Shown piece by piece: positions 44,452-62,605 of a stretch of 64,000 nt of DNA. The notes under the pieces were generated by a model that was not told the origin of the DNA, did no database searches, and worked only from the letters and a program-made list of their open reading frames with translations. Each line of letters opens with the position of its first letter. The stretch's first letter is position 1. A program made the translations under genes and the position numbers. This DNA comes from an uncultured bacterium (lineage in GTDB: Bacteria > Chloroflexota > UBA5177 > JANWHV01): positions 992,001-1,056,000 of the forward strand of contig CAWHAE010000009.1 in the NCBI GenBank assembly GCA_963827235.1, read 5' to 3'.

Positions 44452-44655
44452 CCCGGCTTGAGGGTGCACGGCGTACGCGGCCGGGCGTGCGATGGGAGGC
44501 ATCCCAGTCTGCCGCTTGCTCTTGCCGTGGCCATGGGCGTCAGGTGCGCGGCATACGGCCGGCTAGCGATTCCATTGTTCCATCCGCCAGGGCGGTAGCG
44601 GCAGATACTCCGGCAGCGGCTACAATTCCGCCATCCGCCGTCGGCAATGTTTTCC

Positions 44656-44710
44656 TTGACAAAGGCAATTCTCGTGCTATGCTGGGCATGATTCTAGAAC
44701 ATATGTACTA
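44656..44710 (+). promoter_or_regulatory. sigma70 promoter plus LexA (SOS) box for the phage-like operon
   Basis: TTGACA-16 bp-(TG.)TATGCT, then TAGAACATATGTACTA (GAAC-N4-GTAC, one mismatch to GAAC-N4-GTTC), then GGAGG RBS. Confidence 0.75.
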
Positions 44711-44725
44711 ATAACTGGAGGCAGG

Positions 44726-46423
44726 ATGGGGACTCGGTGGATGACCGAAGGTGCCAGAGCGCTAGCAGCGAACGGGGCGGACGGCACGGCAGTCTCCGAG
44801 CGGCTGGCGGAGGGGCAGTTCGACCCGACGGCGAATGCGACGTTCCCGATGCAGGAGGACTACTACTGGGGCCGGCTGGGCGCGGGCATGGAGGAGGACT
44901 ACTACTGGCGGCGCCTCTCCGACAACTGGTACCAGAAGGACGTCATCCCCAGCACGTACCTCGAGATCCACAACCAGTGCTACGAGCAGTTCAACGCGAA
45001 CCCGATTGCCGGCTACCTGGTGGAGATGATCACCAACTTCGTGCTGGGCACGGGGATCAGCGTGACGGCGGCGAACAAGAAGGTGCAGAAGCTGGTCGAC
45101 GCCTTCTGGGAGGACCCGGACAACCACATGGCGACGCGGGTGTACAGCCTGTGCACGGAGCTCTCGCTGTACGGGGAGCAGTTCGTGCGCTTCTTCGTGA
45201 ACCCGTTCAGCGGGCAGGTGAAGGTGGCGCAGATCGACCCCAGCCTGATCGACCAGATCGAGACGGACCCGGACAACATCGAGCGGACGATTCGGTTCCA
45301 CCAGCGGCCGGTGGGGCCGGGCGGGGCGATGTGGAGCGCCACGGCGCCGATCGGCGGGGTGCAGCCGCCGGCACCGACGTTGGAGCCGACGGGAGCGAGC
45401 TATCCGGGCGACGCGGTGATGGCGGGCAAGTGGTTCGCCGCGGGCACGGAGGTGGTGCAGTTCAAGATCAACTCGGTCAGCAACGCGAAGCGGGGCAAGA
45501 GCGACCTGGCGACGCTGCTGCCCTGGCTGCGGCGGTACCGGGATTGGCTGACCGACCGGGTGCGCATCAACAAGTACAAGGGCGCCTTCCTGTGGGACAT
45601 CAAGCTGGCGGGGGCGGACGCGAAGACGATCGACCGCAAGCGGATGCAGTACGCCTACGCGCCGGAGCCGGGGAGCATCGTGGTGCACAACGAGTCGGAG
45701 ACGTGGACGGCGGTGCAGCCGATGATCCATGCCGACGAGGTGGAGGCGGACGGGCGGGCGATCAAGATGATGATTGCCATGGGGGCTGGCGTGCCCGAGC
45801 ACTATCTCGGTGAAGGCGGGAACACGAACCGGGCGACGGCGAGCGAGATGGGGCTGCCGACCTTCCGCAAGTTCGAGCGGCGGCAGGACACGTTCGGGCT
45901 GCTGCTGCGGGCGATTCTGGACCGGGTGCTGGAGGAGGCGGTGAAGGCGGGGAAGCTGGGGGCGTCGGCGGACAAGAGCTACCAGATCATCTTCCCGGAG
46001 CTGGTGCCGAGCGACAACAAGGACCTGGCGACGGCGGGCAGCCAGATCATGTCCGCCCTGCTGGCGGCGAACCAGGCGGGGTGGATCAGCCGGGAGACGG
46101 GGATGCGGCTGTTCTTCGGCATGATCGGGCAGAACGTGGACGTGGCGGAGGAGATGGGGCGTGTGGCCTCGGAAGGAGTGAGCGCGGATGCTGGATGGAA
46201 CGACGGTGGTGCAGTCGGTGGCGGGGACGGTGGTTCCCGCGGAGAACCAGGGGACAAGCAAGTCCGTGGCAGGGGCGAGTACGGGCGGGGCGGGGTCGAC
46301 GAGCGAGCGCGAGGTAGCGGCGGCGGCGCGGTTCCTGGGGCGGGGGCTGGTGGACGTGCTGGTGCTGCTGCTGGCCGTGGTGCTGCTGGGACTCCTTCTG
46401 TACCTGGTGGTAGCGGCGATTAG
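44726..46423 (+). CDS. Phage portal protein; the Gly-rich tail after about 46180 is probably spurious read-through
   Basis: NPIA..LVE..TNFVLG.G, ELSLYGEQF, RGKSDL..LL.WL, GVPEHYL..G.TNRATA and FPEL motifs. Confidence 0.8.
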   Translation: MGTRWMTEGARALAANGADGTAVSERLAEGQFDPTANATFPMQEDYYWGRLGAGMEEDYYWRRLSDNWYQKDVIPSTYLEIHNQCYEQFNANPIAGYLVEMITNFVLGTGISVTAANKKVQKLVDAFWEDPDNHMATRVYSLCTELSLYGEQFVRFFVNPFSGQVKVAQIDPSLIDQIETDPDNIERTIRFHQRPVGPGGAMWSATAPIGGVQPPAPTLEPTGASYPGDAVMAGKWFAAGTEVVQFKINSVSNAKRGKSDLATLLPWLRRYRDWLTDRVRINKYKGAFLWDIKLAGADAKTIDRKRMQYAYAPEPGSIVVHNESETWTAVQPMIHADEVEADGRAIKMMIAMGAGVPEHYLGEGGNTNRATASEMGLPTFRKFERRQDTFGLLLRAILDRVLEEAVKAGKLGASADKSYQIIFPELVPSDNKDLATAGSQIMSALLAANQAGWISRETGMRLFFGMIGQNVDVAEEMGRVASEGVSADAGWNDGGAVGGGDGGSRGEPGDKQVRGRGEYGRGGVDERARGSGGGAVPGAGAGGRAGAAAGRGAAGTPSVPGGSGD

Positions 46424-46553
46424 CTTCGAGAGCGCGCTGGCCAAGGACTGGGTGGAGGCGATCAGCAAGCAGTTGGCGTTCCCGGTGGTGGGGCTGCTGG
46501 TGTACAGCGCGGGCCTGATCACGAAGCGGCCGGAGTGGGCCGGTGGTGAGTAG
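46188..46553 (+). CDS. Two-TM membrane protein, possible holin
   Basis: RBS AAGGAG; two hydrophobic helices; same operon as the lysin. Confidence 0.55.
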   Translation: MLDGTTVVQSVAGTVVPAENQGTSKSVAGASTGGAGSTSEREVAAAARFLGRGLVDVLVLLLAVVLLGLLLYLVVAAISFESALAKDWVEAISKQLAFPVVGLLVYSAGLITKRPEWAGGE

Positions 46554-46845
46554 CGTGGCGACGCCGGCAGGGGCCGGTTGTGAGGCGGGCACACCGGACT
46601 CCTATCAGCGTGAGCAGTCGGTGTTCACGGACCTGGTGAACGAGATGGACCGGGCGCGGAGATTGCACCGGGACATGACGTCGCCGCACGAGGCGATCGC
46701 GGTGATCCGGGAGGAGTACCTGGAGGCGGAGCGGGAGGTCTTCCAGAAGCACGTCGACCGGGCGAAGCTGCGCAAGGAGCTGATCCAGACGGCGAACGTG
46801 TGCCTGCGGGCGGTGATCGACCTGCGGCTCGAGCCGGGGTCATAG
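46543..46845 (+). CDS. MazG-like all-alpha NTP pyrophosphohydrolase-type phage protein
   Basis: HEAIAVIREEYLE...ELIQTANV matches the EExxE...E.xQ pattern. Confidence 0.6.
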   Translation: MVSSVATPAGAGCEAGTPDSYQREQSVFTDLVNEMDRARRLHRDMTSPHEAIAVIREEYLEAEREVFQKHVDRAKLRKELIQTANVCLRAVIDLRLEPGS

Positions 46846-46848
46846 CGC

Positions 46849-48561
46849 ATGCCACGAAAGAACTCGTATGTGACCGTGACGGATCTCTTCTGCGGCGCCG
46901 GCGGCAGCTCGATCGGCGTGCGGGCGGCCGGGGCGGAGCTGAAGCTGGGCCTGAACCACTGGCGCAAGGCGATCGAGACACACAGCACGAACTTCCCGGA
47001 GGCGATGCACGAGGTGTGCGACGTGCGTTCGACCGACCCGCGGCGGTACCCGTCGACGGACGTGCTGATCGCCTCGCCGGAGTGTACGGCGCACACCCTG
47101 GCGAAGGGCAGGCGCCGGAAGAACATCGCGCAGCAGGATCTGTTCGGCAAGGACGGCCTCGACCCGGCAGAGGAACGGTCGCGAGTGACCATGTGGGACG
47201 TGCCGCGGTTTGCGGAGTACCACCAATACAACCTGGTGATCGTCGAGAACGTGGTGGACGCGCGGCTCTACTGGCGGCCGTTCGACGCGTGGCTGCAGAG
47301 CATGGCCTGCCTGGGCTACAGCCATCAGCTCGTGTTCTTCAACAGCATGTTTGCCCATCCGACGCCGCAGAGTCGCGATCGGCTCTACGTGGTGTTCCAC
47401 CGGACGGGCAGCAAGGCGCCGGATCTGCGCATCACGCCGCGTGCCTGGTGCTTCCAGTGCGGTCGCGATGTGGCGAGCGTGCAGGCATGGAAGAACCCGC
47501 AGCGCCGCTGGGGCAAGTACGGCAAGCGGAACCAGTACCTCTACTGCTGCCCGGTGTGCGCCAGGGTGATGGAGCCGTACTACTTCGCCGCCGCGAACGC
47601 GATCGACTGGTCGTTGAAGGGCGAGCGCATCGGCGATCGCAGGGTGCCGCTCAAGGAGAAGACGCTGGAGCGCATCCGCTATGGCCTGGCCAAGTTCAGC
47701 CGGCCGTACATCGTGGGTCTTGACCATGGCGGTGAGTCAGGCAAGTGCTACGACCCGCTGGACCCCTTCCGCACCCAGACGGCTCGCGACAACACGGCAC
47801 TGGTCGAGCCGTTCATCGCGGAGCTGCGCGCGCACAAACACGCCAGCGGCATGGATGAGCCGCTCTCAACGCTCTGTGCCGGCGGCGGCCATCACGGTTT
47901 GGTGGTGCCGGCAGGGGGCACCTGGAACCTGGAGGCGCGGTCGACGGACGAGGCGATGCCGACCATGACCACGCGGGATGCCTACGGCGTGGCGTTCCTG
48001 GCATCGACGAACTACTTCAAGACGAGCCACGGCGTGGGGGAGCCGATGCCGACTCAGGTGACTGAGATCCAGCACGGCCTGGTCGAAGGTCCGCGGCCGT
48101 TCCTGATCTCGCACTACGGCGGCCGGCACGCCACGCACGACATCGGCGACGCGCTGCCCACGCAGCCAGGGTGGCCGATCCACGCGCTGATCATGGGTCA
48201 GCAGGGTGGCGCGGTAGCGCGGCCGGCGAGTCGCGAGCTGCCCACTGTTTCCACCGGAGGCGCCATCAGTCTGCTCGTGTCGTACACCCGGACAGGCAGC
48301 GCGCATCCGGTGGAGGAACCATTCCACACCGTGCATACGCACGACGGAGAGGCACTGCTTGAGGGGCGGGGCATTCCGGAGGTCGACGATTGCACGTTCC
48401 GCATGCTCAAGCCGCACGAGATCCAGCGGGCGATGGCGTTCCCGGAGGATTACCGGGTCTTGGGCACGGAGCGGGACAAGGTGAAGCAATTGGGGAATGC
48501 CGTCACGCCGCCGGTCATGTCGTTGCTGTTCGAGCGCGCCGTGGCGACGTTGGCAGGCTAG
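46849..48561 (+). CDS. Phage-type C5-cytosine DNA methyltransferase with a repetitive variable region
   Basis: DLFCGAGG (I), SPEC (IV), ENV (VI), QSRDR (VIII), R.MAFP (IX), GNAV (X). Confidence 0.93.
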   Translation: MPRKNSYVTVTDLFCGAGGSSIGVRAAGAELKLGLNHWRKAIETHSTNFPEAMHEVCDVRSTDPRRYPSTDVLIASPECTAHTLAKGRRRKNIAQQDLFGKDGLDPAEERSRVTMWDVPRFAEYHQYNLVIVENVVDARLYWRPFDAWLQSMACLGYSHQLVFFNSMFAHPTPQSRDRLYVVFHRTGSKAPDLRITPRAWCFQCGRDVASVQAWKNPQRRWGKYGKRNQYLYCCPVCARVMEPYYFAAANAIDWSLKGERIGDRRVPLKEKTLERIRYGLAKFSRPYIVGLDHGGESGKCYDPLDPFRTQTARDNTALVEPFIAELRAHKHASGMDEPLSTLCAGGGHHGLVVPAGGTWNLEARSTDEAMPTMTTRDAYGVAFLASTNYFKTSHGVGEPMPTQVTEIQHGLVEGPRPFLISHYGGRHATHDIGDALPTQPGWPIHALIMGQQGGAVARPASRELPTVSTGGAISLLVSYTRTGSAHPVEEPFHTVHTHDGEALLEGRGIPEVDDCTFRMLKPHEIQRAMAFPEDYRVLGTERDKVKQLGNAVTPPVMSLLFERAVATLAG

Positions 48562-48565
48562 AGCG

Positions 48566-49069
48566 GTGCTCGATGTTGTGCCGCTGACGCTGGCGCAGGC
48601 GAACGAGCTCGTGGTGCGGCTGAGCAGGCACCATGGGCCGGCGTGGGGACACCGCTGGAGCATCGGGGTGCAGGCGGATGGCCGGCTGGTGGGCGCCGCG
48701 GTTGCCGGCCGTCCGGTGTCGCGGATTCTGGACGATGGCCGCACGGTCGAGGTGACGCGGCTGGTCAGCGACGGCACGCCGAACGCCTGCAGTTGCCTGC
48801 TGGGGGCCATGGTGCGCATCGCGCGGGCCATGGGCTACGAGAAGGTGATTACCTACACGCTGCAGACGGAGGGCGGTGCCAGCCTGCGGGCGGCGGGCTG
48901 GACGGTGGCGGCGGTGGCCACGCGAGTGCGCACGTGGGACACGCCCTGCCGGCCGCGGCAGCATCACGAGCACGAGGACACGCCCAAGGTGCGATGGGAA
49001 TGCCAGCTCAAGCCGGCGGCGAAGCGGGCGCCGCGGCACAGGCCGGTGTTCGGTGAGAGTGAAGTCTGA
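48566..49069 (+). CDS. XF1762-family / Mom-like GNAT-fold protein
   Basis: AN..V...RHH, VG.A..GRPV.R.LDDG.T.EVTRL, NACS.L.G and ITYT..E.G.SLRAAGW. Confidence 0.8.
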   Translation: MLDVVPLTLAQANELVVRLSRHHGPAWGHRWSIGVQADGRLVGAAVAGRPVSRILDDGRTVEVTRLVSDGTPNACSCLLGAMVRIARAMGYEKVITYTLQTEGGASLRAAGWTVAAVATRVRTWDTPCRPRQHHEHEDTPKVRWECQLKPAAKRAPRHRPVFGESEV

Positions 49070-49092
49070 CCCGGAGGGGTCTGGAGGAGAGG

Positions 49093-49890
49093 ATGCCCGA
49101 ACTGAAGGGGATTGACGTCTCGCAGTGGCAGGGGGCTATCGACTGGGCGATGGTGCAGGCGGACGGGTATAGCTTCGCGGTGGTCAAGGCGACGGAGGGA
49201 CTGTCGCTGGTGGACCCGGAGTTCGCCGCCAACTGGGCGGGGGCGAAGGCGGCGGGGCTGGTGAGGGGGGCCTATCACTTCTGCCGGCCGGAGCTGGGGA
49301 ACGCGCGGCAGCAGGCACAGCACGTCGTGAACACGGTGGGGACGCTGGAGGCGGGGGACATCCTGGCGCTGGACCTGGAGACGCCGGCGGGGACGGTCGA
49401 CCAGTCGGCGTTCGCGCTGGACTGCGCGGGCATGGTGGCGAAGCTGGCGGGCTTCCCGCCGCTGCTCTACTGCAGCCAGGATTGGGCGAGGAACCGGCTG
49501 ACGGATGCGGCGCTGGCGGCCTATCCGCTGTGGCTGGCGTGTCCGGGCAGCAGTTGTCCGGCCTCGATCGGGGTGTGGCCGAGCGTGGCGCTGCAGCAGG
49601 AGTCGTGGACGCTCGCGGTGCCGGGGATTGAGGGGGAGGTGGACGGGGACGAGCTGGCGCGCACGCTGGACGGGCTGCGGGCGCTGGGCAAGCCGGCGGT
49701 GAGTCTGCGGACGGTGGTGTCGTGCGCGATGAAGCCGACGCCGGACCATACGAGCCCGGCGGTGGTGCTGCTGGCGGCGGGGGCTCTCGTGGCGCCGGAC
49801 GGGCCGCAGACGACGCACTGGCTGCACTGCCACACGAGCAGCTACAGCGGCTGGCTGCTGAAGGCGGAGCTGGCGGCGGTGGCATCGTGA
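49093..49890 (+). CDS. GH25 muramidase (endolysin) with a C-terminal SH3-like domain
   Basis: GIDVSQWQG.IDW, VKATEG, GAYHF, LDLE and VPGI.G.VD motifs. Confidence 0.92.
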   Translation: MPELKGIDVSQWQGAIDWAMVQADGYSFAVVKATEGLSLVDPEFAANWAGAKAAGLVRGAYHFCRPELGNARQQAQHVVNTVGTLEAGDILALDLETPAGTVDQSAFALDCAGMVAKLAGFPPLLYCSQDWARNRLTDAALAAYPLWLACPGSSCPASIGVWPSVALQQESWTLAVPGIEGEVDGDELARTLDGLRALGKPAVSLRTVVSCAMKPTPDHTSPAVVLLAAGALVAPDGPQTTHWLHCHTSSYSGWLLKAELAAVAS

Positions 49891-50396
49891 TCGTGCCGAG
49901 GCATCCCTGGCCCAAGCTGAGCGAGACGCTGCCGTACCCGCGCGACCCGCGGCGGTGCCAGGCGTGCGGGGCGGTGGGGGACGGCAACCGGGTGCCCAGA
50001 GACGGCGCAGCGTGTCTGCCGGCGCTGCACCGCTGGCGGGAGCATGACGAGGCGGACCGGCCCACGGCGGTGGTGGTCGTGCTGTGCGCGGGGTGCAGCG
50101 ACAGGATGATCGGGCCACATCCGCGGCTGTACAGCCGGCTGCACGACTTCGAGCCGGTGCCGGGCAGCATGGCGCTGTGCGAGGAGTGCGCGTGCCGGGA
50201 TGGCCTGCGCTGCACGCACGGCGACCTGAAGGCCAACGGCGGCGGTGGGTTGGCGGTCAGCGTGGCGAAGCCGCACGTGGCCATCCTCTGCTCGAGGGGC
50301 GGCACGCAGCACGGCTGCCGGCAGATGGTGATCTGGCCGTCGGCGCCGACCGGTTGCAGGGGCCGCAGCGTGGCGGTGCGCGAGGCCGCGGGCTAG
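49887..50396 (+). CDS. Cys-rich hypothetical phage protein
   Basis: GTGA coupling; CQAC, W.EHD, LCAGC and CEEC motifs (Zn-binding/HNH-like). Confidence 0.65.
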   Translation: MIVPRHPWPKLSETLPYPRDPRRCQACGAVGDGNRVPRDGAACLPALHRWREHDEADRPTAVVVVLCAGCSDRMIGPHPRLYSRLHDFEPVPGSMALCEECACRDGLRCTHGDLKANGGGGLAVSVAKPHVAILCSRGGTQHGCRQMVIWPSAPTGCRGRSVAVREAAG

Positions 50397-50476
50397 CAGC
50401 CAGCGTGCTTCGAGTCCAATACTGATAGAGTGGCTAAGGGATTGACTCTGGATGTATCATGCGGACGGAGGGTGCG

Positions 50477-50857
50477 ATGAGCGTGCGGGCGGTGGTCTCG
50501 GACCGGAGCCGGCATGAGGGCAGCGGGCACAGTGCTCGCCATGCCGGCGTCTCGCACGTGGTGGCGACGGCGGTCGCGGTGCAGGACGTGACGGCGGGGG
50601 AGTCGTCGAGCGGCTCGCGGGCGGTCTCCGGCGCCCGGGCGAGCGATGAGTTCTCGGAGTTGGGGGTGCTGCAGTCCTACGACTCGGGCAGCAACACGGC
50701 GATGGTGCAGCTGCTGGGCGCGCAGTCGAACGTGGTGGGGCCGCTCTCGGTGAACAAGGCGATCGGCTCCAGTCTGCTGGTGGCGGGTGCGCAGTGCTTG
50801 GTGGTGCTGATGGACGCCGCGAACCCGGCCGACGGGTCGCTGGTGAGCGTGTGGTGA
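50477..50857 (+). CDS. Hypothetical protein, possible OB-fold spike/baseplate-like
   Basis: RBS GGAGGG; GVLQSYD....TA.VQL...G.QCLVV pattern. Confidence 0.55.
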   Translation: MSVRAVVSDRSRHEGSGHSARHAGVSHVVATAVAVQDVTAGESSSGSRAVSGARASDEFSELGVLQSYDSGSNTAMVQLLGAQSNVVGPLSVNKAIGSSLLVAGAQCLVVLMDAANPADGSLVSVW

Positions 50858-50864
50858 GGCCGCT

Positions 50865-50926
50865 GGCTGCGGTCCCAAGCCTCCGACTGCGGTCGGATGG
50901 CAGCAGAGGGGGGACTGCGGTCCGGG
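50865..50926. repeat. REP-like hairpin, copy 3
   Basis: Hairpin TCCGAC-TGCG-GTCGGA; 50878-50904 is identical to 52212-52238. Confidence 0.75.
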
Positions 50927-50962
50927 TGAAGCGGGGTTGGTGTGAGCGGTGAGGGAGGAGTG

Positions 50963-51370
50963 ATGCCGAGACAGGTGGGTTCCCCGGTGGTGGTGGAAGG
51001 ATCGATAGTCCCGAGGGGCGATGGAGCGGCCCTGCCCGAGCCGTGGACCCGAAGCTGCCGCAAGGGGCCGCGGGGTGGGCTGAAGCGGGAGCCGCGGGTG
51101 GACGAGAGCGACCTGTACGTGCTGTTCCGGGAGCGCGGCGCCGGGCGGTATCCGTTCCTGCTGGCATGGCTGAACCGGCACGGGCTGACCTCCGGGTACG
51201 AGGTGCAGCACGCGGCACGCTTCGGGCGGGTGCTGGTGGTGGGGCAGCCGGACGGGCTCTCGCTGCCGGAGACGTGCGACACGTCGTACGTCAACGCGGA
51301 GACGGCGGACGTGCTGTTCCGCGGCCTGCCGAGCGTGCGGAGCTTCTTTGGGAGGGGGCATGGAGAGTAG
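50963..51370 (+). CDS. Hypothetical phage protein
   Basis: RBS GGAGG; overlaps the start of the protease ORF. Confidence 0.6.
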   Translation: MPRQVGSPVVVEGSIVPRGDGAALPEPWTRSCRKGPRGGLKREPRVDESDLYVLFRERGAGRYPFLLAWLNRHGLTSGYEVQHAARFGRVLVVGQPDGLSLPETCDTSYVNAETADVLFRGLPSVRSFFGRGHGE

Positions 51371-53460
51371 GGAGAGCCGGATACGGTTCGGCATCAGCCT
51401 GCGGGAGGGGCTGGTGGGGCCGGCGGACAAGCGGGAAGTGGAGGTGGTGTGCATCCGGCCGGGTCTCTCGCGGAACGGCAACTACTACGGGCCGGAGTGC
51501 CTGGCGGAGGCGGTGCCGCTGTTCGAGGGGGCGCGGGCCTACGTGGACCATTCGGACGCCACGCTGCGCAGCGTGCGGGACCTGGCGGGGTCATACAAGA
51601 AGGTGCGGCTGGGCGGTGAGGGCGAGGTCCGGGCGACGCTGCGCATCTCGAAGAGCCAGGAGTGGCTGTGGGCGCTGATCCAGGAGTCGGTGGAGGAGGG
51701 GACGGACCTGGTGGGGCTGTCCATCGACGTGCAGGCGAAGGTGGTGGAGGGGCAGGTAGGCGGCCGGCGGGCGCGCATCGTGGAGCACATCCACACGCTC
51801 TCCAGCGTGGACGTGATCACGAAGGCATCGGCGGGTGGCACGTGGAGATCGTCGAGGAAGCGGGAACGAGGGCGCGTTCCAAGAAGCGGACAAGCAGAGT
51901 TGGTGGGACCAGTGCGAGCCGCTGAACGAGCAGGGGGCGGTGCTGGCGGAGCGGGCGGTGCGCGGCGGGACGTCGGTCGTGGGGCAGCAGCAGCCGGTGC
52001 CGGCGGGGCAGGTGAATCCGGTGCAGCTGGGACCGAGCGTTGGGCAGGCGATTCCTGGGGGTGAAGTGCAGTTGGGAGGGACGTACGTGGTGCAGACCGG
52101 CAGCAATCAGGTGGCGGGCGGCGGTGAGGGTCCGGCTACGGTGGCTCCGGTGGCGCCGCCTGCGCAGATGGTCTCGGCGAGCCAGGCGATCCGGGAGGGG
52201 AACGCGGCTGGAGCCTCCGACTGCGGTCGGATGGCAGCGAACGGGGGCACTGCGGTGCCCGGCGGCGGGATGGCGGTGCGCGAGGGCGAGAGCGCGGCGG
52301 GGGACGTGGCGCGGCTGCCGGAGGAAGTGCGGCAGGAGCGGGCGGTCTTCGCCGGCGAACGGTTGGTGGAGAGCACGCTGGGCAAGACAGAGCTGCCGGC
52401 GGCGATCCGGGCGCGGGTGGCACGGCGGTTTGCCGGTCAGGTGGTCCAGGAGGCGGACCTGCAGGCGGCAATCGACGAGGAGCGGGCCGTGCTGGCGGAG
52501 CTGACGGCGGGCGGGCTGATCCGGGGCATGGGCTACGAGAAGCGGGTCAGCATCGGCATGACGGAGGCGGAGCGGCTGCAGAAGGCGTTCGACCAGCTCT
52601 TCGACATCCAGGAGGGCGACAAGGTACCGGCGCTCTCGGGCATTCGGGAAGCCTACGCGGTGGCCACGCACGACTACGCGGTGACGGGCATCACGCCGTT
52701 GGAGCGGTTGCAGGAAGCGGACACCACGACCTCGACCTTCAGCTACCTGCTGGGCACGAGCATGAACAAGCGGCTGCTCAAGGACTACCAGGCATGGCCC
52801 AGCGAATGGCAGAAGTGGTGCACGATCACGCCGATCAAGGACTTCAAGCTGCAGAACCGGGTGCGGCTGGGTGCCTTCGGCTCGCTGACCACGGTGAGTG
52901 AAGACACGGCGTACACCACGATCACGCTCTCGGACGTGCAGGCGACCTACTCGCCGGCCAAGCGGGGCAACCTGGTGGCGGTGACGCGGGAGACGATCGT
53001 GAACGACGACCTGTACGCGATCAAGCAGATCCCGGGGAAGCTGGCGGTGGCGGCGGCGTTCACGCTGGCGGAGTTCGTATACGGGCTGGTGGCGGCGAAC
53101 GGGGGCAACATCTACGACGGCAACAAGCTGTTCGACTCGATCAACCACCTGAACACGGGCATCATTACCGCCAACCTGGGCACGGCGAACTCGGGGGCGG
53201 CGCTGGCGTCCGCGGCGCTGCAGACGGCGGTGACGAAGATGCGGCGGCAGGCGAACCTGGCGAGCAAGCCGATCGGGCTCAAGCCGCGCTTCATCGTGGT
53301 GCCGCCGGAGCTGGAGTGGACGGCGATGGTGATCACCAAGAGTGCCGGTGCGCCGGGTGGGAACAATAACGACATCAACCCGATGCTGGGCTACTGCGAG
53401 GTGATGGTGGCGCCGCAGATCTGTCAGTTTAAGCATAGGTTTGCGTATCGCGCAACCTGA
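51360..53460 (+). pseudogene. Prohead protease-scaffold-Mu gpT-like major capsid polyprotein; frameshifted near 51845-51865 and truncated at 53421
   Basis: Protease motifs G.SRNG.YY, YVDH, GLSI, SVDVI...SAGG; capsid motifs NKRLL..Y, DFK, K.G....TRETIVNDDL, IP.KLA.AA, YDG.KLF..H.N, P.FIVVPPELE; expected C-terminus replaced by transposon-end sequence. Confidence 0.85.
52212..52256. repeat. REP-like hairpin, copy 4, in frame inside the capsid linker
   Basis: AGCCTCCGACTGCGGTCGGATGGCAGC encodes ASDCGRMAA. Confidence 0.75.
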
Positions 53461-53495
53461 TCGTTAAAATCGGCGCACGCAAATATATGCTTAAA
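53422..53495. repeat. Transposon end with three putative TnsB binding sites
   Basis: TGTCAG then TTTAAGCATAGGTTTGCG (53428-53445); inverted copies at 53451-53468 (TTTAACGATCAGGTTGCG) and 53478-53495 (TTTAAGCATATATTTGCG). Confidence 0.85.
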
Positions 53496-54063
53496 GAACC
53501 GTCCGACGTGCTTGTCTTGTGACACTGATACTTCGGTGCGGAGCCTTCACTGAACCTCATCGCAAGACCAAGAATGGCCAACGCTTAAGTCGCTGCTCAC
53601 ACTTCGCTTACCCTGCAACTGCCTATGCCCGCTTCGGCAGCAACCACCACGCCGAACAGCACACCGCAGTGCATCCAGCAAGCAACTGCGGCGATCATTG
53701 CCACATTTGCATTACGCTGCGGCAGACCTCTCGAGCACCCAAAGTGAAGGGGCAGATACGCATGTCAACGCACGCACGCCGCGAGAATCGGTTATCGCGT
53801 GCGCCTAGAAGCACGCCGCGGCATGCCGACGCGCGGCAGCGTTTAGGCGACGGGAGCCTGCACCGACGTGACCGCACGATGGCCTCCGATGCCTTCAGCA
53901 CGAAGAACACGCCGGGCAAGGCGTGCACCAACCAAACGGTGATCAACATCTACGCGCGTGCCGATCTCGCCTGACGTCCGGCGTCTGCATACTCTACCCC
54001 GTGGAATAGCAGTGTCCACTTCCACGCCGGCGGCCACGTGTCGACCAGATTCATCGAGATCGC

Positions 54064-55551
54064 TCAGAGACTTGGCAGGTCGCGTTCACCACCCGGAGTC
54101 CATCCAGACTTCTCAAGCGCAGACTCCCAGACAGCGTAAAAGATCGGATCCGCGTGATGCGCAGGTGTAGCAAGTCGCTCAATCACTTTCGCCTGGCTGG
54201 GATACTCATCGGCAGCTGTAAGCTCACGTACAATCACATCTACCTCGCGAGCAAGTCCGGCCATTCGGTTGAGACTCCGGTTGCGCTCGTAGCGCCCGTG
54301 AAACTGCGCGATGCGCGCGCACTGCTTTGGATACATGTTCGTGAGCAAAGCAGCATCACACTCAAGACGGCGCGCCAATTGATGTACCGAGGGTGGAGGC
54401 ACGATGTGCCCCGCCAACGCAGCCTCCAGCACCTGGTTGATATCGTCAGACCAGCGGCTTCGATGTGGGCGGGTTGGCGCGCGCATAGGCACGTATTCGT
54501 TCACGAGCGGAGTCAGCGTATCGTGAGGATCAGGCAACTCACCAGTCAGGAAAGTCACCACTCCCACACCCAACCCGGCGCATAACCGCAGGAGTTCGGG
54601 AAATGAAGGCACGCTCACTCCTGTAAGCCATCTTCGTACGGTGTCTTGATGCTGCCCAGTCTTCTGCGCCAGCGCGCGCACCCCAGTGCCATTGACTCTC
54701 CGGGTGGCGGCAGGAGACGCAGTCTCATGCAGTCGCGAAGCAACCCTCTCCTTACCCGGCGGTGAGACGCGGGGAGCTACGGCCACTAGATCTCCTGCCT
54801 GCCGGGCGACCCACATTTCCCAGCGCCCCTCATGGGTTTCGGTTGCTACAGGGTGCTGGGCCGCACGTATCCCATGAACCTTGCTACCCAACGAATCCCC
54901 ACAATGGGGACAAAAGCCAGGACGCGTTATCGGACCCAGCACCGGCATTTCTCGCCAGCACCTTGGATTTGCGCATCGGTCCAGGAGATAGACGTGATGC
55001 CGTAGGCAGACTTGAACAGCGCCGATGGCCCACACCAATCGGTCAGACACAATACCGCCATCTTGCTGCATCTCTTGATAGCAGTATGGACAGTACGCAC
55101 GCATGGATCGTAGCAAGCCTCTAGACGCGATCACGCTACGCCACGTCAGCAGAGTCAGAGATCCGAGCAGTGCTGGCTGGCAAGTCAGCACTTCGACCGC
55201 GTTGACGATCGCCTCAGCCTGACCATCCAACCCATTAATGGCCACAGCGTCCCGCAGCAGCATCCTGCCGAGGGTACGGTCCGACAAGTTGGGCCGCTGC
55301 GCCATCGGGAAGATCTCCTCACCCATCAGCGTGCGAAGGTGTACACAGTGCGCAAACGCCAGGCGTGCCAAATAACCGCTCATACCTTCCACGTCCGGCG
55401 TACCAACCCACTGCGGTGCCAGACGATATAAACGGCTTCGAGCTGAGATCTGGGGAAGTGTGAGGTCAAACACGGCATTGCCGCCGACAGTGGAATTCCA
55501 GGCGGCTTCGTCATCACTCAGATTGTCGATGACAATCACGCTTCTTTCCAC
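54064..55551 (-). CDS. tniQ: TniQ/TnsD-family target selector with zinc fingers and C-terminal HTH domains
   Basis: SRLY.L.P..VGTP.VE..SGYL.RLA.AH, YCPYC, C..H...L.D.C and FCPHCG; XRE-like VRALAQKTG..TVRRW. Confidence 0.9.
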   Translation of the reverse strand: MERSVIVIDNLSDDEAAWNSTVGGNAVFDLTLPQISARSRLYRLAPQWVGTPDVEGMSGYLARLAFAHCVHLRTLMGEEIFPMAQRPNLSDRTLGRMLLRDAVAINGLDGQAEAIVNAVEVLTCQPALLGSLTLLTWRSVIASRGLLRSMRAYCPYCYQEMQQDGGIVSDRLVWAIGAVQVCLRHHVYLLDRCANPRCWREMPVLGPITRPGFCPHCGDSLGSKVHGIRAAQHPVATETHEGRWEMWVARQAGDLVAVAPRVSPPGKERVASRLHETASPAATRRVNGTGVRALAQKTGQHQDTVRRWLTGVSVPSFPELLRLCAGLGVGVVTFLTGELPDPHDTLTPLVNEYVPMRAPTRPHRSRWSDDINQVLEAALAGHIVPPPSVHQLARRLECDAALLTNMYPKQCARIAQFHGRYERNRSLNRMAGLAREVDVIVRELTAADEYPSQAKVIERLATPAHHADPIFYAVWESALEKSGWTPGGERDLPSL

Positions 55552-56819
55552 GCTTGACCCCCTTCGCCACCAACTGGGTCTCGTGTCGGACGGCGTTCAC
55601 CGACCCCGCGCTTGGAATCACGCCGACCAGTCGTTTTTCCGCTGGTCCTGCCATCGCCGTCAGAAACACCGGCGTACTCAGCACCGGGTAGCGTCATGCG
55701 ACCGGCGCCATGACAAAGAGCGTCAAACTGCCGGGTCCTCCACGCGCGCTCCACCGCAGGACTCACCAGAACGGATCTTTCCCCCGTCTGCGCAGCGTCG
55801 ATGAGCCTATCAATATCTTCTGGCGATTGCATGTACTGCTCCACCTGCTTCATGGTAACCTTCGGCGGATCCTTGCTGAGCCCATCAGCCAACACGTGGG
55901 TGAGCAGGTCCTTGAGCGTACCGATACAGCCAATGCATGCCAGGTAGCACTGTCTCCATCGAGTCATCAACTCTATGGGAGTCTCGGGAACTGGCATCTG
56001 AAGCAGCAACGTCTTAAGCGCTGACTGAAAACTGGCGACGTGTTCCTTTTGCGCAATATCGTAACGCGGGATATAGATCTGGTGTCCACCGGAAAGCATG
56101 TCAGTATTGACCTCCCGCAGTGCGTGAAGGTCATCCGTGCCCACCAATACATGCACTACCTTGCAGCGCTTTGCCATCCCTCGGATGACTTCTGCGCGGA
56201 CCTCCAGCGAGTCCGATGAGCACGACAACAACAGGCGCTGCGCTTCGAAGATGAAGAACGCAAGCGGCCTACGTTTATTCAGCGCAGACTCAACAGCATC
56301 CTGCAAGCCCGCAGTTGAATGGTTATAGTGCTTCGATGGCACTGGAGCCAGCGCAGGCCACAATGGGAGCTGGCCAGGTTGGTGCTCAAACGCACGGATC
56401 CGAGCAATCATCGGGACTTGCAGCGCACGCAGGGCATCGCTGTAATGTCGAGCCCAGCCATACCCCCCATTTTCCGGTGCTTTCGCCTCTATTTGTGGAA
56501 GCAGCACACGACCCCTATCTGACTCAAGCTCCTCACGATATTCATCCGCAAGAAGCTTAATGACCTCAGCGCAAGCCGTACGCTTACCTACGCCTTGGGG
56601 GCCACACACCAAGATATGCGACCAACTACCCGGCGTTCGAATCGCATTCAACAGGTCATCACGCGCAGTAGTAAGCGCTGGATGTTCAATCACCGTTTGC
56701 TGAAAGTACGCAAGCCGCTCAGCCGCTGGCTGTCGGAGCAAATCACGCGGAAAGAGACCAGGGCCTAGGGGATTCGCTGTAGATCCTTCGCTCTCGCCTG
56801 CGTCGAACGTTTGATCCAT
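55536..56819 (-). CDS. tnsC: TnsC/TniB AAA+ ATPase with atypical Walker motifs
   Basis: ERL.YF....I.HP; Walker A GPQGVGKR, Walker B FFIFEAQ, HVLVGT and GCIG.LKD; lies between tnsAB and tniQ. Confidence 0.88.
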   Translation of the reverse strand: MDQTFDAGESEGSTANPLGPGLFPRDLLRQPAAERLAYFQQTVIEHPALTTARDDLLNAIRTPGSWSHILVCGPQGVGKRTACAEVIKLLADEYREELESDRGRVLLPQIEAKAPENGGYGWARHYSDALRALQVPMIARIRAFEHQPGQLPLWPALAPVPSKHYNHSTAGLQDAVESALNKRRPLAFFIFEAQRLLLSCSSDSLEVRAEVIRGMAKRCKVVHVLVGTDDLHALREVNTDMLSGGHQIYIPRYDIAQKEHVASFQSALKTLLLQMPVPETPIELMTRWRQCYLACIGCIGTLKDLLTHVLADGLSKDPPKVTMKQVEQYMQSPEDIDRLIDAAQTGERSVLVSPAVERAWRTRQFDALCHGAGRMTLPGAEYAGVSDGDGRTSGKTTGRRDSKRGVGERRPTRDPVGGEGGQAWKEA

Positions 56820-56820
56820 C

Positions 56821-59800
56821 TCACGTCAACCGTTCGGTCGTGGGTATCGCGTCAAAATCGAGCGCGAGATCGTCAGCATCGTAAGCACCACGAACACCGT
56901 GCTCAGTCGGGACCGTGCTCCTATTCCGCAGAACCTGCTGGCTCGAGGAGGGAAGCAACACCAGCGGTGGGCGGTCAGATTCGGGGGACTGCTGCGATAC
57001 GGTCGGACTTCCCTCAGCACGATCACTTGGTGCCGGAGAGACTTGCAGTGCAGAGTCCTGCACCTTATCCTCCGGATTACCGGGAAGCACGGCGTCATCG
57101 ATTCTAACAGTGAGTAGGGTCAAAACCGGTTCATGATTCACGTCTTCAGGAGCGACAGGTCGCACCACCAGCGCAGACTGTGCTGGAGCAACCCCGCCAG
57201 CTGGAACCGGCCCACCGGCAATCCGTTGGTTAACAGCAATGTGTAGTGCATCGCGTTTACGTTGCATCAACACTGCCTGGGTCACATCGACGCTGTGCAG
57301 ATAAGCCGCCAGATCCCCAACGTTCAACGTCTTTGAAGCTCGATACGATGCGCGGTTCTTCGCCCGCAACTCCGCAGACGCCAGGCGAAGCAAGCGCTCA
57401 GACATGCCTTTGAACAGGTGGGAGTGGTAGTACGAGAAGCACTTCACCCAACGTCCCACCCGCACCAAGATATACCCCGCATCAAAGGGATCGTACTTCA
57501 CCTCAACACGCGTCCCATTGAACCTGCCCGGAATTGGCGAGGGCACCTTGTAGATCACGTGGTGGAGTTGCACCTGCCCTTTCTTATTAAGCTTCGCAAC
57601 CCCGGTCCGCGTCGTCGGGAGAGTCTCACGCAGAAAGTCATCATCATAGGCGATACGCTTGAAGTCCCGCTCACCAGAGAGGCGCACGCTCTGCTCAAAG
57701 GCATTCCGCGGCGAATCCAAGACGCCCCGGTGTACCGCGGTGTCGTATGTCCCGTAGGCCCAAGCGCAGATCTCCAAGTACAACGTCTCCAGGGACCAGA
57801 TTGCGTGCCGCGCAGGATCCACGGACACAGTCACCTGTCGCACATTGCGCATCACCGTGGTATTTCCCTCGAGGTTATGGATCAACTGTGTATTCAGCGT
57901 GCCGAAGAGTCGCTCGCCTATCGCACCGTGACGCGGCTCAGCGCTGGGACGCTGTCGCTTGATACAACCGTTCTGGGTCAACAACGATTCAAAGTACACC
58001 GAATCGAACTCAGATCCCCCATCAACCACGAGTGCACTAGGAAGGCGATTCCATCGCCGAACACAGTCGCGAATCACCATCATACACGACCGATAACTCG
58101 GCTCGTCAAACGTCAGATAGAGCGCCAGGATACGTCGCGAGAACGCATCCACCATCAGCGTCAGCCACGGTCGACCCAGCACCCTGTTGCTGTACATATC
58201 CATAAGTTGCACGTCAAGCTGCGTGTGATCGAGATGGGCCATCTCCCACGCTCGCACCCCGTGGCGCTCAGGGCCCTCGATTTCCAGGGGAACGTCTTCC
58301 TTGATCCCATAGGCCGCACGCCTCCCCTCACGACGTACTTTTTGCTCGTAGAGCGAAGTGTTGTTAACAGCCCTATAGAACGTCACGTGGCTGGGAGGCG
58401 GCAACCCTTTCTCCTGTGCCAAACGACACACCTCCACGTATGATGACCACGCCCTCCCACGCTTGAGGCCGAGAGCATTCTGTCCCAGATGCTTGTCCCT
58501 GATAACATCGCGCATGATCGCGTAGAGGCGGACATCCAATCGTTGCGAGGAATTCCCGGACCGCGGTTTCGGCAGCAAGCCAACATGACCGTTACCGTAG
58601 CAAACTTCAGCATCGCGGTAGTCCTTGCACCATTGCTGGCACGTACGCAGCGGCGGTGCCTTTGCCGGCAGATGTTCTCCACGCAGAAGCAGTTGCACGA
58701 AAGGATGCCGCCGCGTCGCTTCTGCGTGATCCTGCCGGGACGCGTGAAGCATTCTTTCCCGGCCGGCGGGGGTCATACTTCCTGTATGCGCGGGCAACTC
58801 TGGTAGGTTTGCTATTTCCCCACGGCCGACGAGGTCATCGAAGTCTCGATGCGAAACAGCAAGGACATCCCCGCTTGGACCGACGAGCCTGACGTTGTCA
58901 GCGTCGCCCCCTATCCACGAGAATCGTCCACCGCGCCACGTGACCGTCGCGCCCGGCGTCAAAGCCCGTATGCGAGCGATGCGCGAAACAGCCTCTGTCT
59001 TTGCTTGCTCTGCCAGCGCCCAAGACTGCGCGCTTTCGGCGTCCGCGTAGATCCGCATGCCTGGCCGACGCGCCAGTTGCTCGCTATGGAGGTCAACGCA
59101 GACCTCGCCACGTGCAATGAGCAGATACAGACTATCAGCAACGTTCGGAAAGCGCTGGAGGGATTCAGCGTCAATGATGTCGTGAGTCCGCACACCCGGC
59201 TGCGAACAAACAATGTCGATAAGAGCTTGGCGCAGTTCGGCCCGTACCTCTACGGGGCTTTCACACTGTAGATACTCAGCCAGGAATGAGATGTTCTCCT
59301 GGAACTTCCAGTTGATAGCCTTGGACGAGAAGACCCGATACTCAAGGCCGAACTGCGCCGCGTATGCTTGCCCAGGGGGACAGATCCAATCGGTATCGCC
59401 CACTCTCTGATAGCGATTCGGCTGCTCTACAGAAAGTTCCTGAAGCTTCTCTTCCTGCTTGCATTCCACCCACCAAGCCCCGCGCGCGGCCAGGACGAAG
59501 AAGTCAGGAGTATGCATTCCGCGCCATCGCCGCCCAGCCTTGGCCTGGTAGTCAAGGGGAATCTGCGGCGGTTGATCCCAGATCTCCAGGATGTCATCGT
59601 CGAACTCAGACAGCATGATAAACGGCAACTCGACGGTATGACTCTCGAACTGGACCGAATGACCCATCTTGCGACTCGGATACCGTCCGTGCACGTTTCC
59701 TGCGCGACCACTAACCAAGCGACTGGGAGGGGAACCACGGATGCCCGCGACTTCCGCACGCGCGGCATCAGATAGCCCCACCTCGCCGCACCACGCAGCA

Positions 59801-59823: not shown

Positions 59824-60234
59824 GATACTCTCCAGCGAGCCGTTGACCGCGGCAACCAGCTTGAAATCCGCCTGGTGCTTGTAGCCACCATCATCGCGCA
59901 TGCTTGCCCGGCACCCAGACGCACCCTGCGCCGAGAAGCCGCAGAATTCGGGCCTAGTGTACACCGCACTCTACCCATTGAATACTCCCAATTCAGTTCG
60001 CCAGACCTCACGGATGGTGCGCGGGCAATCGGCAAGCCTCTGCAGTTTCGCGTCACCCAGTCGCTACTAAGCTCGAGCGGCTAACACCGACGTCAGAGGA
60101 ACGGCCCGGAACACCGTCCGTAGCTCCGCCGCCAAACCCGATACAACACCTGCGACGGCTCTAGTTGCCGACAACAGCAGTTCCCGCATCATCGTGCGCC
60201 CACCTGCTCCACCTGCGTGTCAACATGTAACTTC

Positions 60235-62542: not shown

Positions 62543-62605
62543 GGTCTTGGTTCTCCTCTCCGGTATGGCCTCTAGACATCGCTCTATCAGTAGCGTACAA
62601 TTGCA

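Follow-up and report, generated by a model that had tools for sequence, protein, structure and literature searches.

A phage-derived head, lysis and packaging cluster behind a predicted LexA-type operator in a Chloroflexota genome

Gene content of the cluster

The window is a 64,000-nt stretch of an uncultured Chloroflexota genome (GCA_963827235.1, contig CAWHAE010000009.1, positions 992,001 to 1,056,000). Positions 44656-53421 of the window were found to hold the first 8.8 kb, the front third, of a phage-derived head, tail, lysis and packaging cluster. Its genes lie on a single strand in the order promoter and operator, portal, holin-like ORF, endolysin, protease-scaffold-capsid fusion, connector, adaptor and fibre genes, 719-aa and 190-aa proteins, small ORFs and large terminase. 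From portal to terminase the cluster measures about 25 kb in relatives, and in the source genome it is spread over 86 kb. The features are listed below in window coordinates; positions outside the window are given on contig C9.

43488..44234, minus strand: host membrane gene, OFeT_1/GDT1-like, left flank of the element (Pfam; single copy in the genome; 88% identical same-position orthologue in G001)
44645..44655, plus strand: left edge of the DNA common to relatives (blastn homology to G001 begins at 44645)
44656..44683, plus strand: sigma70-type promoter, TTGACA (44656-44661), 16-nt spacer, TG-extended TATGCT (44678-44683); 10/12 positions match
44695..44710, plus strand: predicted LexA-type operator TAGAAC-ATAT-GTACTA, between -10 hexamer and RBS
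44726..46423, plus strand: portal gene (phrog_10963, E 4e-43; single copy in the genome)
46188..46553, plus strand: 121-aa ORF, candidate holin (hydrophobic segment at about residues 49-79 of the hydropathy profile; 76% identical in G001)
46543..49069, plus strand: three-gene cassette of a 100-aa ORF, C5 cytosine methylase (46849-48561) and Mom-like modification protein (48497-49069) (Pfam/PHROG gene calls)
49093..49890, plus strand: GH25 muramidase, the endolysin (PF01183, E 5e-35; phrog_291, E 7e-40; 67% identical in G001)
50459..51370, plus strand: two conserved small ORFs of 132 and 142 aa, separated by a spacer that holds REP-like copy 1
51348..53421, plus strand: broken protease-scaffold-capsid fusion gene (HK97-type capsid PF25209, E 3e-27; cut after 53421)
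53417..53421, no strand: left copy of the 5-bp target-site duplication AGATC (right copy at C9:1092997-1093001, after the transposon)
53422..64000, minus strand: first 10.6 kb of a 47,575-bp Tn7-like transposon, C9:1045422-1092996 (terminal repeat and tns-type genes)
Transposon genes, minus strand: tniQ 54064-55551, tniB/tnsC-like 55536-56819, fused tnsA-tnsB 56821-59964 (Pfam TniQ, AAA_22/TniB, TnsA_N with rve and Mu-transposase C)

The left edge carries the shared string (A/C)(T/C)GTTTTCCTTGACA, upstream of which the sequence differs among G001, G002, G003, G004 and an IMG/VR contig. The promoter is the sole sigma70-like site in 44200-53500 (9.3 kb; 1 found vs a shuffle mean of 0.7). The operator core GAAC-N4-GTAC at 44697-44708 reads GAACATATGTAC and is followed by GGAGG at 44717 and the portal ATG at 44726. 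Portal homology to distant relatives stops near codon 485 (46180). The 121-aa ORF had no family match and is a putative holin. No homologous DNA or protein for the methylase/Mom cassette was found in G001, and the cassette is absent from IMG/VR locus L032 too. One domain (family F2) is common to the 132-aa ORF and the tail fibre.

Part of the initial annotation was borne out, namely a near-consensus sigma70 promoter with a GAAC-N4-GTAC box between -10 and RBS, a portal directly behind it, a host membrane gene on the left and nothing of integrase, replication or terminase type ahead of the operon. The upstream genes that were read comprise a secreted 515-aa protein, a BTAD/NB-ARC/TPR regulator, GH39, LacI and ABC-transporter genes, and integrase, replication and terminase genes were absent among them. 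GC content, described as host-like, equals or slightly exceeds that of the host, with 0.67-0.72 in the operon block and 0.634-0.676 in individual contigs of the genome. The view of a self-contained operon ending at 53421, with terminase and tail genes elsewhere in the genome, had to be abandoned. Position 53421 is the last base ahead of the Tn7-like transposon, a junction within the major capsid gene, and the remaining capsid gene, tail genes and large terminase belong to the same cluster, 48-77 kb downstream of 53421 and beyond the window. The capsid remainder and tail genes are found at C9:1092997-1104700 and the terminase gene at the far end, C9:1121703-1122995 (phrog_5909, E 2e-6). A terminase homologue in G044 matches PF17289, and a profile built from 6 terminase homologues matches 5tge and 5m1f, terminase nuclease domains of solved structure (E 3e-4 to 5e-4).

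Scanned against Pfam and PHROG, the cluster ORFs of the window and G001 returned solely structural, lysis, methylase or esterase families, with the one exception of a Y-family polymerase (PF00817) in G001. Integrase, replication and repressor families gave 0 matches among the scanned ORFs of the cluster proper, of which the small ORFs (76-225 aa) were covered in part. The cluster showed neither tail sheath nor tube genes.

Lesions in the source copy

The transposon opens with the terminal repeat TGTCAGTTTAAGCATA at 53422-53437. Its inverted terminal repeats agree at 15/16 positions, the sole such pair in the genome, and its GC content is 0.57-0.62. The insertion takes away the last 70 or so codons (73) of the capsid, which resumes at C9:1092997, outside the window. 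In common with Tn7-like transposons, the insert has TGT...ACA ends, duplicates 5 bp of its target and carries TnsA-N, rve/Mu-C, AAA and TniQ genes. Unlike in Tn7, a single 1047-aa ORF encodes TnsA and TnsB as a fusion and the tns genes face the nearer end, whereas those of Tn7 point inward.

Protease and capsid form a single 808-aa ORF in G001 and lie in two frames in the source copy because of a 25-bp indel; the protease spans 51348-51845, the indel falls at about 51846-51870, and scaffold and capsid follow from 51871. The fibre, adaptor and 719-aa genes of the source copy also change frame, and the terminase is cut off from the rest of the cluster by a serine-integrase element of 16.7 kb. 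The REP-like hairpin noted twice inside the operon was found at 50878-50913 and 52212-52247 and is a member of a family dispersed in the genome; host REP-like repeats have colonised the cluster in the source genome. The second copy sits within coding sequence, in an in-frame 81-bp insert (~52200-52290) in the scaffold/capsid part. Read from its sequence, the source copy is a dead relic that would be incapable of making particles. Insertions strike copies often, being present in G000, G001, the G103 portal and the G127 terminase.

Inheritance among relatives

Single copy, synteny, congruence with the species tree and low dN/dS had been proposed as checks on the cluster. Portal and capsid were single-copy in 5/5 genomes of the genus, and the portal identities of the genus-mates (87, 81, 76 and 74%) rank as their recA identities (93, 88, 83 and 83%). 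G001 has an uninterrupted, syntenic cluster with the same left flank as the source genome, but the chromosomal site varies in the genus, the portal having another left flank in G003 and G004 and host-like genes after it in G003. For G000 vs G001, dN/dS was 0.15-0.6 once a minus-strand ORF at 1.25 is set aside; for G003 vs G004 it was 0.05-0.27. The fibre evolves fast (48% identity, dN/dS 0.6). The portal to terminase order is common to G004, G047 and a 24-kb IMG/VR contig. Synonymous divergence between G000 and G001 was 0.43-0.82 for the cluster, 0.52-0.54 for the neighbouring membrane gene and 1.54 for recA. As the cluster matches the membrane gene and is far below recA, the whole region may possibly have been transferred later within the genus.

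The portal was found in 22/61 relatives and in 60/301 genomes of the phylum. In the sister family f22 it was present in 22/24 genomes, the capsid in 42/61 and the terminase in 45/61, and all 16 terminase-less genomes also lacked the capsid. Mostly one match per genome was obtained, two or three listed matches usually being pieces of one gene, and most were stop-free; G321 has a second full-length terminase. Gene positions are rearranged in f22. Three species of one genus have the terminase 380-450 kb away from portal and capsid, and in G355 it is 680 kb from the capsid. Capsid identity to G047 drops with that of recA, from 80% at 93% to roughly 70% at 89-91% and about 66% at 81-85%. The best portal match in 50,697 phage records was 28.6% identical. 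Similarity to Ktedonobacteria proteins had been suggested in the initial annotation, and portal homologues ~59-60% identical do carry the names Ktedonobacteraceae and Thermogemmatispora. Two relatives are on contigs classed as viral by IMG/VR.

Control, origin and known systems

The genome has a bona fide lexA with a GAACAGACGTTC box, and its own recA carries TAGAACGTACGTTC. The operator agrees with the LexA operators of recA, lexA and the DnaE2-type polymerase. TAGAAC-N4-GTACTA occurs 5 times in the 8-Mb genome vs 0 at N3 or N5 spacing, and two of the five sites precede a 1067-aa DnaE2-type Pol III alpha and an XPB-type helicase (XPB/DUF790 pair). Promoter and box are kept ahead of the portal in 4/4 genus-mates (G001-G004) and in L032. 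The right half-site is GTAC in G001, G002 and G003, GTCC in G004 and TTTC in L032, each one mismatch from GTTC. The promoter, initially assigned to the host, moves with the portal into a different left flank in G003 and G004 and therefore belongs to the element. Judged by the genome's own SOS genes and by conservation in the genus, the operator can plausibly be read as a LexA site, and to this extent the initial call stood. A search for the box gave nothing at the portal of 8 more distant loci, nor in L076-L082, seven loci from four f22 genomes covering portal, capsid or first terminase piece. The family as a whole does not share SOS control.

It is unlikely that the box instead serves another repressor, whether phage- or host-encoded, or is a conserved leader element, in which case the cluster would not be damage-inducible. 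One half-site departs from GAAC-N4-GTTC in every copy, GTAC-N4-GTAC is equally near at one mismatch, each element has just one box and the sister-family loci yielded none, all of which would suit such a reading. Against it, the same variant and flanks precede the DnaE2-type polymerase and XPB helicase genes, TAGTAC-N4-GTACTA occurs 0 times in the genome, and the right half drifts while GAAC is constant, as expected of a weak LexA site and not of a symmetric alternative operator. As to origin, a complete temperate phage is very improbable; its early region for lysogeny and replication would be the serine-integrase block (integrase, primase-helicase and small regulators in G001), which would then be no foreign insert. 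The G001 block does hold a serine integrase (phrog_95, E 9e-76), primase/helicase and small ORFs on the same strand between tail genes and terminase, and an integrase 57% identical to it occupies the corresponding place in G000. The blocks, 15-17 kb in size and placed in front of the terminase, are however opposite in orientation and differ in cargo (a tape-measure-like gene in G000, primase and second terminase in G001), and the integrases show a dS of 1.7 vs about 0.5 for the cluster. In G004 and the IMG/VR contig the structural genes directly abut the terminase with no block between, and no homologue of the two integrases was found in the other fetched loci, including G004, G047 and IMG/VR contigs.

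A remnant of an ordinary temperate phage that has no host function is a possible, if rather doubtful, explanation. A common, podovirus-like lineage of Chloroflexota phages would have integrated, lost its early region and be decaying, conservation elsewhere reflecting repeated infection by a widespread phage group and slow decay. The source copy, with at least six lesions, fits this, as do the patchy distribution beyond the two families, the unfixed chromosomal site, the relatives on viral contigs, the methylase/Mom moron cassette, which like the fast fibre is typical of live phages, and the canonical terminase-portal-capsid order in the more distant G060 and G043. Frequent insertions could also mean weak selection. 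Decay is harder to reconcile with the f22 capsid and terminase, which are intact, mostly single-copy and co-occurring or co-absent even 380-680 kb apart, with the low G003 vs G004 dN/dS, with a portal-to-terminase span that has no integrase or replication match among the scanned G001 ORFs, with the restriction of the serine integrases to G000 and G001 among fetched loci, and with cultured-phage portals all below 29% identity. The lack of self-propagation genes, single copy throughout the genus, purifying selection and intact scattered sister-family homologues lead us to favour, with modest confidence, a domesticated GTA- or PBSX-like particle system, which accounts for the pattern better than an ordinary prophage would. 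Selection acting through the host appears to maintain the cluster. In intact relatives LexA would occupy the operator immediately past the -10 hexamer, and DNA damage would cause LexA self-cleavage and transcription of the entire cluster, leading to capsid assembly, DNA packaging and lysis. The domesticated, damage-inducible system first proposed would apply to relatives, where the cluster seems inherited and selected like chromosomal genes, and not to the disabled source copy.

In GIL01, a temperate phage of Bacillus thuringiensis and a self-replicating linear tectivirus, host LexA directly represses the late virion and lysis promoter, using tandem boxes of the Gram-positive GAAC-N4-GTTC motif class and requiring the phage proteins gp7 and gp6 (PMC6182141). 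LexA control of head genes is therefore no proof of domestication. As in GIL01, a LexA-type box of the same motif class lies before head genes; unlike it, there is one box, and no LexA-like or other repressor family was found among scanned cluster ORFs. PBSX-type elements are SOS-inducible defective prophages or phage-like bacteriocins of Bacillus, myovirus-like and controlled via their own repressor. The cluster resembles them in having structural, lysis and terminase genes only, in being chromosomal and host-inherited and in its predicted damage induction, and differs in an operator that looks like a direct LexA site and in that no sheath or tube genes were seen.

GTAs of the RcGTA type, whose function is random packaging of host DNA and its transfer, are phage-derived head, tail and packaging sets without integration or replication genes of their own. 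The cluster, as a candidate for such a system, is alike in this gene set, in predicted host-type regulation and in being single-copy and clade-wide. It differs in its independent ancestry (podovirus-like set, protease-scaffold-capsid fusion, GH25 lysin, phylum Chloroflexota), in control that would act through a direct LexA operator and not through the regulators of RcGTA, and in a prevalence lower than that of RcGTA in Rhodobacterales. The f22 genes, scattered over the chromosome yet intact, resemble the multilocus organisation reported for RcGTA (PMC5026251, PMC9632790).

Anatomy of the capsid operon and the insertion that ends it

The genome bearing the window (G000; 7.98 Mb in 21 contigs, 95.9% complete, 9% contamination) carries the capsid operon on contig C9, whose positions are given here with the prefix C9; the window corresponds to C9:992001-1056000. 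The promoter, the box and the leading portal gene described in the initial annotation were all found in the window where that annotation had placed them, and the promoter was the sole sigma70-like site within 44200-53500.

Features of the operon in the window
44656 and 44678, plus strand: sigma70-like promoter, TTGACA (44656), 16-nt spacer, TG-extended TATGCT (44678)
44697-44708, plus strand: LexA-type box GAACATATGTAC
44717 and 44726, plus strand: RBS GGAGG (44717) and portal ATG (44726)
Plus strand: portal gene (phrog_10963, E 4e-43)
Plus strand: 121-aa hydrophobic ORF, then 100-aa ORF
Plus strand: C5 cytosine methylase and Mom-like protein
Plus strand: GH25 endolysin, then two small ORFs
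Plus strand: head protease and HK97-type capsid protein (PF25209, E 3e-27 for the capsid)

The left side is occupied by host-type genes for a membrane protein, a secreted 515-aa protein, a BTAD/NB-ARC/TPR regulator, GH39, LacI and an ABC transporter. The large regulator, of STAND type, spans 37354-40590; large STAND-type regulators of family F5 also lie within 5-15 kb of portal, capsid or terminase in six other loci (L019, L020, L021, L056, L059, L060), a recurrence that may be due to chance given the abundance of such regulators in these genomes.

On the right, what had been read as the end of a terminase-less capsid operon at 53421 turned out to be a transposon junction. A transposon end, TGTCAGTTTAAGCATA, begins directly after 53421 and its inverted copy (15/16 positions) ends at C9:1092996, both ends being bordered by AGATC, a 5-bp target duplication. 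The two inverted ends are the sole such pair in the genome. The 47,575-bp insert begins, on the minus strand, with tniQ, a TniB/TnsC-like ATPase and a fused TnsA-TnsB, and has a GC content of 0.57-0.62 vs 0.67-0.72 for the phage-like block. With its TnsA, TnsB, TnsC-like and TniQ genes, TGT...ACA inverted ends and 5-bp target duplication it is a Tn7-like transposon. TnsA and TnsB are fused into one 1047-aa ORF. The transposon cargo, about 40 kb, holds a perfect LexA-type box, AGAACACGTGTTCT, at 62635-62646, 73 nt upstream of a 340-aa ORF (62708-63730), and may be damage-regulated too.

Damage to the G000 copy was evaluated against the genus-mate G001, in which the protease-scaffold-capsid gene is an uninterrupted 808-aa gene. 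The transposon cuts off the last 73 codons of the G000 capsid gene, the sequence continuing at C9:1092997, a 25-bp indel throws the protease part out of frame with the capsid part, and an 81-bp (27-aa) piece of REP-like repeat is inserted in frame within the protease-capsid coding sequence. Frame changes were also observed in each of the fibre, adaptor and 719-aa genes, so that an intact gene set is lacking in G000. Against G001, each of the six flanking host genes gave an unbroken alignment, in five cases over about the full length. REP-like copies were located at 50878-50913, 52212-52247 and 13487, with at least 3 more further downstream in the cluster. The REP/MITE-like family, with core CCGACTGCGGTCGG plus GGATGGCAGC, is dispersed over contigs C9, C10 and C12, and four tandem copies occur at C9:121374-121629. 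These lesions, including the frame changes and the extra REP-like copies, indicate a dead G000 copy whose decay is not recent. What the window holds of the operon is certainly a fragment of a larger cluster that the Tn7-like insertion and frameshifts have inactivated.

The remainder of the cluster and its integrase blocks

Terminase and tail genes had been expected elsewhere in the genome. Both were found downstream in the same cluster, beyond the window.

Features of the G000 cluster beyond the transposon
C9:1093-1104.7 kb: two small head-tail proteins (like the other genes of this stretch, homologues of G001 post-capsid genes)
C9:1093-1104.7 kb: GDSL/gp53-type tail fibre
C9:1093-1104.7 kb: 366-aa protein, weakly matching the SU10 adaptor and a head-closure family (E about 5e-4 and 5e-5)
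C9:1093-1104.7 kb: 719-aa protein, 190-aa protein and 78-aa ORF
C9:1104775-1105005: 76-aa ORF resembling the first ~90 terminase residues of other genomes
C9:1105006-1121702: 16.7-kb block ending with a 581-aa serine integrase, minus strand
C9:1121703-1122995: 430-aa large terminase

Host-type genes come after the terminase. The order of the downstream genes places terminase and tail in the same one-stranded cluster, which in G000 two large inserts have lengthened to 86 kb. Identification of the G000 terminase was made only via synteny with G001 and a further genome, G044; a Pfam PF03237 search of the G000 genome gave no terminase match. A PDB search with the single G044 terminase sequence returned nothing, and matches were obtained with a profile of 6 terminase sequences.

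The terminase gave the first impression of being interrupted at codons about 73-89 in both G000 and G001, a reading that was later doubted. In three genomes of the sister family f22 (G255, G325, G330) a stop codon falls at residue ~85-89 of the terminase, the boundary at which the G000 and G001 inserts also lie, and the 76-aa ORF at this boundary in G000 is complete, which together suggest that the insert is possibly intergenic and the terminase body possibly whole. The first ~90 terminase residues may then be a separate small gene.

The G001 cluster lies at the same place as that of G000, in the order secreted protein, membrane gene, promoter, portal, with all ORFs open and no methylase/Mom cassette. 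This DNA-modification cassette of C5 methylase and Mom-like protein with a small ORF (46543-49069) was observed in the G000 copy only, being missing in G001 and in an IMG/VR virus-database contig with a related cluster. In G001 a 15-kb block on the same strand as the cluster lies between the small terminase-like ORF and the terminase body (L028, reverse complement 37215-52370); it encodes a serine integrase, a primase-helicase, a radical-SAM protein and another terminase, of PF03237/PF17289 type, but no capsid genes. The block of G000 and that of G001 occupy the same point in the cluster, in opposite orientation and with different cargo, and their integrases are 57% identical, with a dS of 1.7 vs about 0.5 for the cluster. 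The terminase directly follows the 78-aa ORF in the genus-mate G004, and in the IMG/VR contig it directly follows a 719-aa homologue and a 152-aa ORF; an integrase block is present in neither. We read the G000 and G001 blocks as separate mobile elements, that of G001 resembling a phage satellite that targets packaging genes. As in the initial annotation, the cluster proper showed no integrase among its scanned ORFs, the sole serine integrase belonging to a separate block missing from G004 and the IMG/VR contig.

The LexA-type operator and its promoter

In G000 a LexA with S24 domain is encoded downstream of GAACAGACGTTC, and recA downstream of TAGAACGTACGTTC. Perfect GAAC-N4-GTTC sites numbered 87 in the genome vs ~84 expected by chance, a hand estimate from base composition made without shuffling, and the bare core is thus uninformative. 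The extended form TAGAAC-N4-GTACTA occurred at 5 sites, against 0 at N3 or N5 spacing and a chance expectation of about 0.2 (rough hand estimate, base composition), and TAGTAC-N4-GTACTA occurred at 0. The portal has one of the five sites; others stand at a DnaE2-type Pol III alpha of 1067 aa, an XPB-type helicase partnered by DUF790 and a phage-related gene on contig C8, whose operator equals that of the portal at 19/20 positions, and there is one further site. Besides the portal, the positions are C8:163256, C14:242950, C19:165232 and C16:633216, and the form is commoner in G000 than the perfect palindrome (5 vs 2). Among the genes that it marks is a phrog_22961 gene, a homologue of which lies inside the G001 integrase block.

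Promoter and box before the portal were kept in 4/4 genus-mates, with the right half-site GTAC in G001-G003 and GTCC in G004; the IMG/VR contig has TTTC. Every variant is one mismatch from GTTC, and the retention of single-mismatch boxes before the portal fits a weak LexA operator. The box matches others in its own genome, sits downstream of the -10 hexamer and ahead of the RBS, and is conserved in the genus. Outside the genus it was found at 0/8 more distant portal loci (one of the 8 from the unpublished genome G055) and at none of the f22 loci L076-L082; L083 has one LexA box, away from its terminase piece, and the further genome G047 only a weak look-alike, GAACAAGTTTTC. The LexA-type box proposed in the initial annotation gained from the same variant at the genome's own DnaE2-type and XPB genes. 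Its conservation, which that annotation had proposed to test across Chloroflexota, was seen within the genus (4/4) and failed at the 8 distant portal loci and L076-L082. Taken together, these patterns make control of the cluster by LexA likely. The motif class GAAC-N4-GTTC has been described for Gram-positive bacteria (PMC3323433), and a literature full-text search returned no title on LexA boxes preceding a portal gene.

The promoter had been taken for one of the host. Portal and promoter have a different left flank in G003 and G004, and in G003 host-like genes follow the portal. As the promoter accompanies the portal into another flank it belongs to the element, whose site is unfixed across the genus. 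The membrane-gene orthologue of G002 and G003 adjoins a ChrB-like gene that sits on another contig in G000; this shows that the site is not common to the whole genus, and the search for an empty site gave no clean empty junction.

Prophage or host-maintained particle system

Distribution and divergence in the genus and in f22, with the family scans and portal searches described after them, were counted in favour of domestication. Portal and capsid are single-copy in 5/5 genomes of the genus, and the identity ranking follows recA (portal 87, 81, 76, 74%; recA 93, 88, 83, 83%). Estimates of dN/dS were 0.15-0.6 for G000 vs G001, one minus-strand ORF apart (1.25), and 0.05-0.27 for G003 vs G004. 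In the sister family f22, which appears to be Ktedonobacteria-like to judge from the names of portal homologues and from genome sizes of 3.3-11 Mb, the portal was present in 22/24 sampled genomes, the capsid fusion in 42/61 and the terminase in 45/61 (unpublished G279, G352 and G354 counted), and 16/16 terminase-lacking genomes were also without capsid. There was mostly one match per genome, 2-3 listed matches usually being pieces of one gene, stops were rare, and G321 carried two full-length terminases. Portal and capsid stand side by side in divergent orientation in three species of one f22 genus, with the terminase 380-450 kb away, and the capsid-terminase distance reaches 680 kb in G355; four other f22 genera (three without the unpublished G279) share the order terminase (minus), capsid (plus), portal (minus), in mirror image in G287, within 25-40 kb. 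The f22 cluster genes read as rearranged yet intact. Capsid identity to G047 declines as recA identity does, with similar values among congeners (unpublished G352 and G354 counted). Beyond the four-genera order and the 8-locus box count, no conclusion rests on unpublished genomes. Separately, the portal of G103 is split by ~41.6 kb (G103:C1:1040339-1083310) and the terminase of G127 by ~20.7 kb (G127:C1:4458534-4480676).

A temperate prophage would be expected to bring early genes and integration functions. None of the scanned ORFs of the cluster proper, from portal to terminase, in the window and G001 matched integrase, replication, replication-initiation or repressor families in Pfam and PHROGs, a scan that took in the 76-225-aa ORFs only partly. 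Early genes are missing, no integrase adjoins either end of the cluster proper and there is no tRNA gene in the window, which also removed a tRNA-gene att site from consideration, and the broken structural genes of the G000 cluster count against a functional temperate prophage. The portal family comprises 543 protein clusters at E<=1e-20, many on contigs of 0.3-1.3 Mb, and the best portal identity to a cultured phage is 28.6%; a chromosomal and very large portal family would point towards domestication. Some homologues are named Ktedonobacteraceae or Thermogemmatispora, in agreement with the similar portal proteins of Ktedonobacteria mentioned in the initial annotation. The impression that portals of other families are lone genes is doubtful, as the G006 and G011 pieces fit one cluster split between contigs.

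Several findings counted against domestication. Occurrence is patchy, with the portal in 22/61 relatives (G055 and G018, both unpublished, counted here and in the recA comparison) and in 60/301 genomes of the phylum (unpublished G055 and G279 counted in the survey that gave this and the f22 portal figure), and insertions often disrupt members, as in G000, G001, the G103 portal and the G127 terminase. Two relatives are classed as viral in IMG/VR (CheckV completeness 50% and 19%), the canonical phage order terminase-portal-capsid is found in relatives further away, the site differs between members of the genus and no LexA box was found at the fetched f22 loci. The synonymous divergence of the cluster matches that of the adjacent membrane gene but is far below that of recA, and was likewise counted against domestication; dS seems gene-dependent and the test is ambiguous. 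A LexA-repressed virion operon is also known from a genuine phage, GIL01, whose late virion/lysis promoter is directly repressed by host LexA (PMC6182141), and the box alone is thus no proof of domestication. On balance we lean slightly towards the cluster family being a host-maintained, GTA- or PBSX-like particle system and not a plain prophage. A wider proposal is tentative and rather doubtful: much of the Chloroflexota, including the Ktedonobacteria-like family (42-45/61 genomes), might keep an independently domesticated, podovirus-derived GTA-like system, the whole of which the genus of the window would have wired to the SOS response via a deliberately weak LexA operator, such that damaged cells would lyse and release capsids with host DNA.

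If the cluster makes particles with host DNA in intact relatives, gene transfer agents would have arisen once more and independently, in a phylum whose members abound in soils and hot springs and from which no GTA is known, and with a simple switch of one LexA operator before one operon. A literature full-text search found no paper on such a system in Chloroflexota or Ktedonobacteria. Portal, protease-capsid fusion and terminase form a marker-gene set for screening growable, inducible Ktedonobacteria isolates. A practical lesson is that a seemingly integrase-less and terminase-less capsid operon was the stump of a 47.6-kb transposon insertion. In that Tn7-like element tnsAB-tniB-tniQ is directed at the nearer transposon end, with tniQ stopping 640 bp from it, whereas the tns genes of Tn7 point inward.
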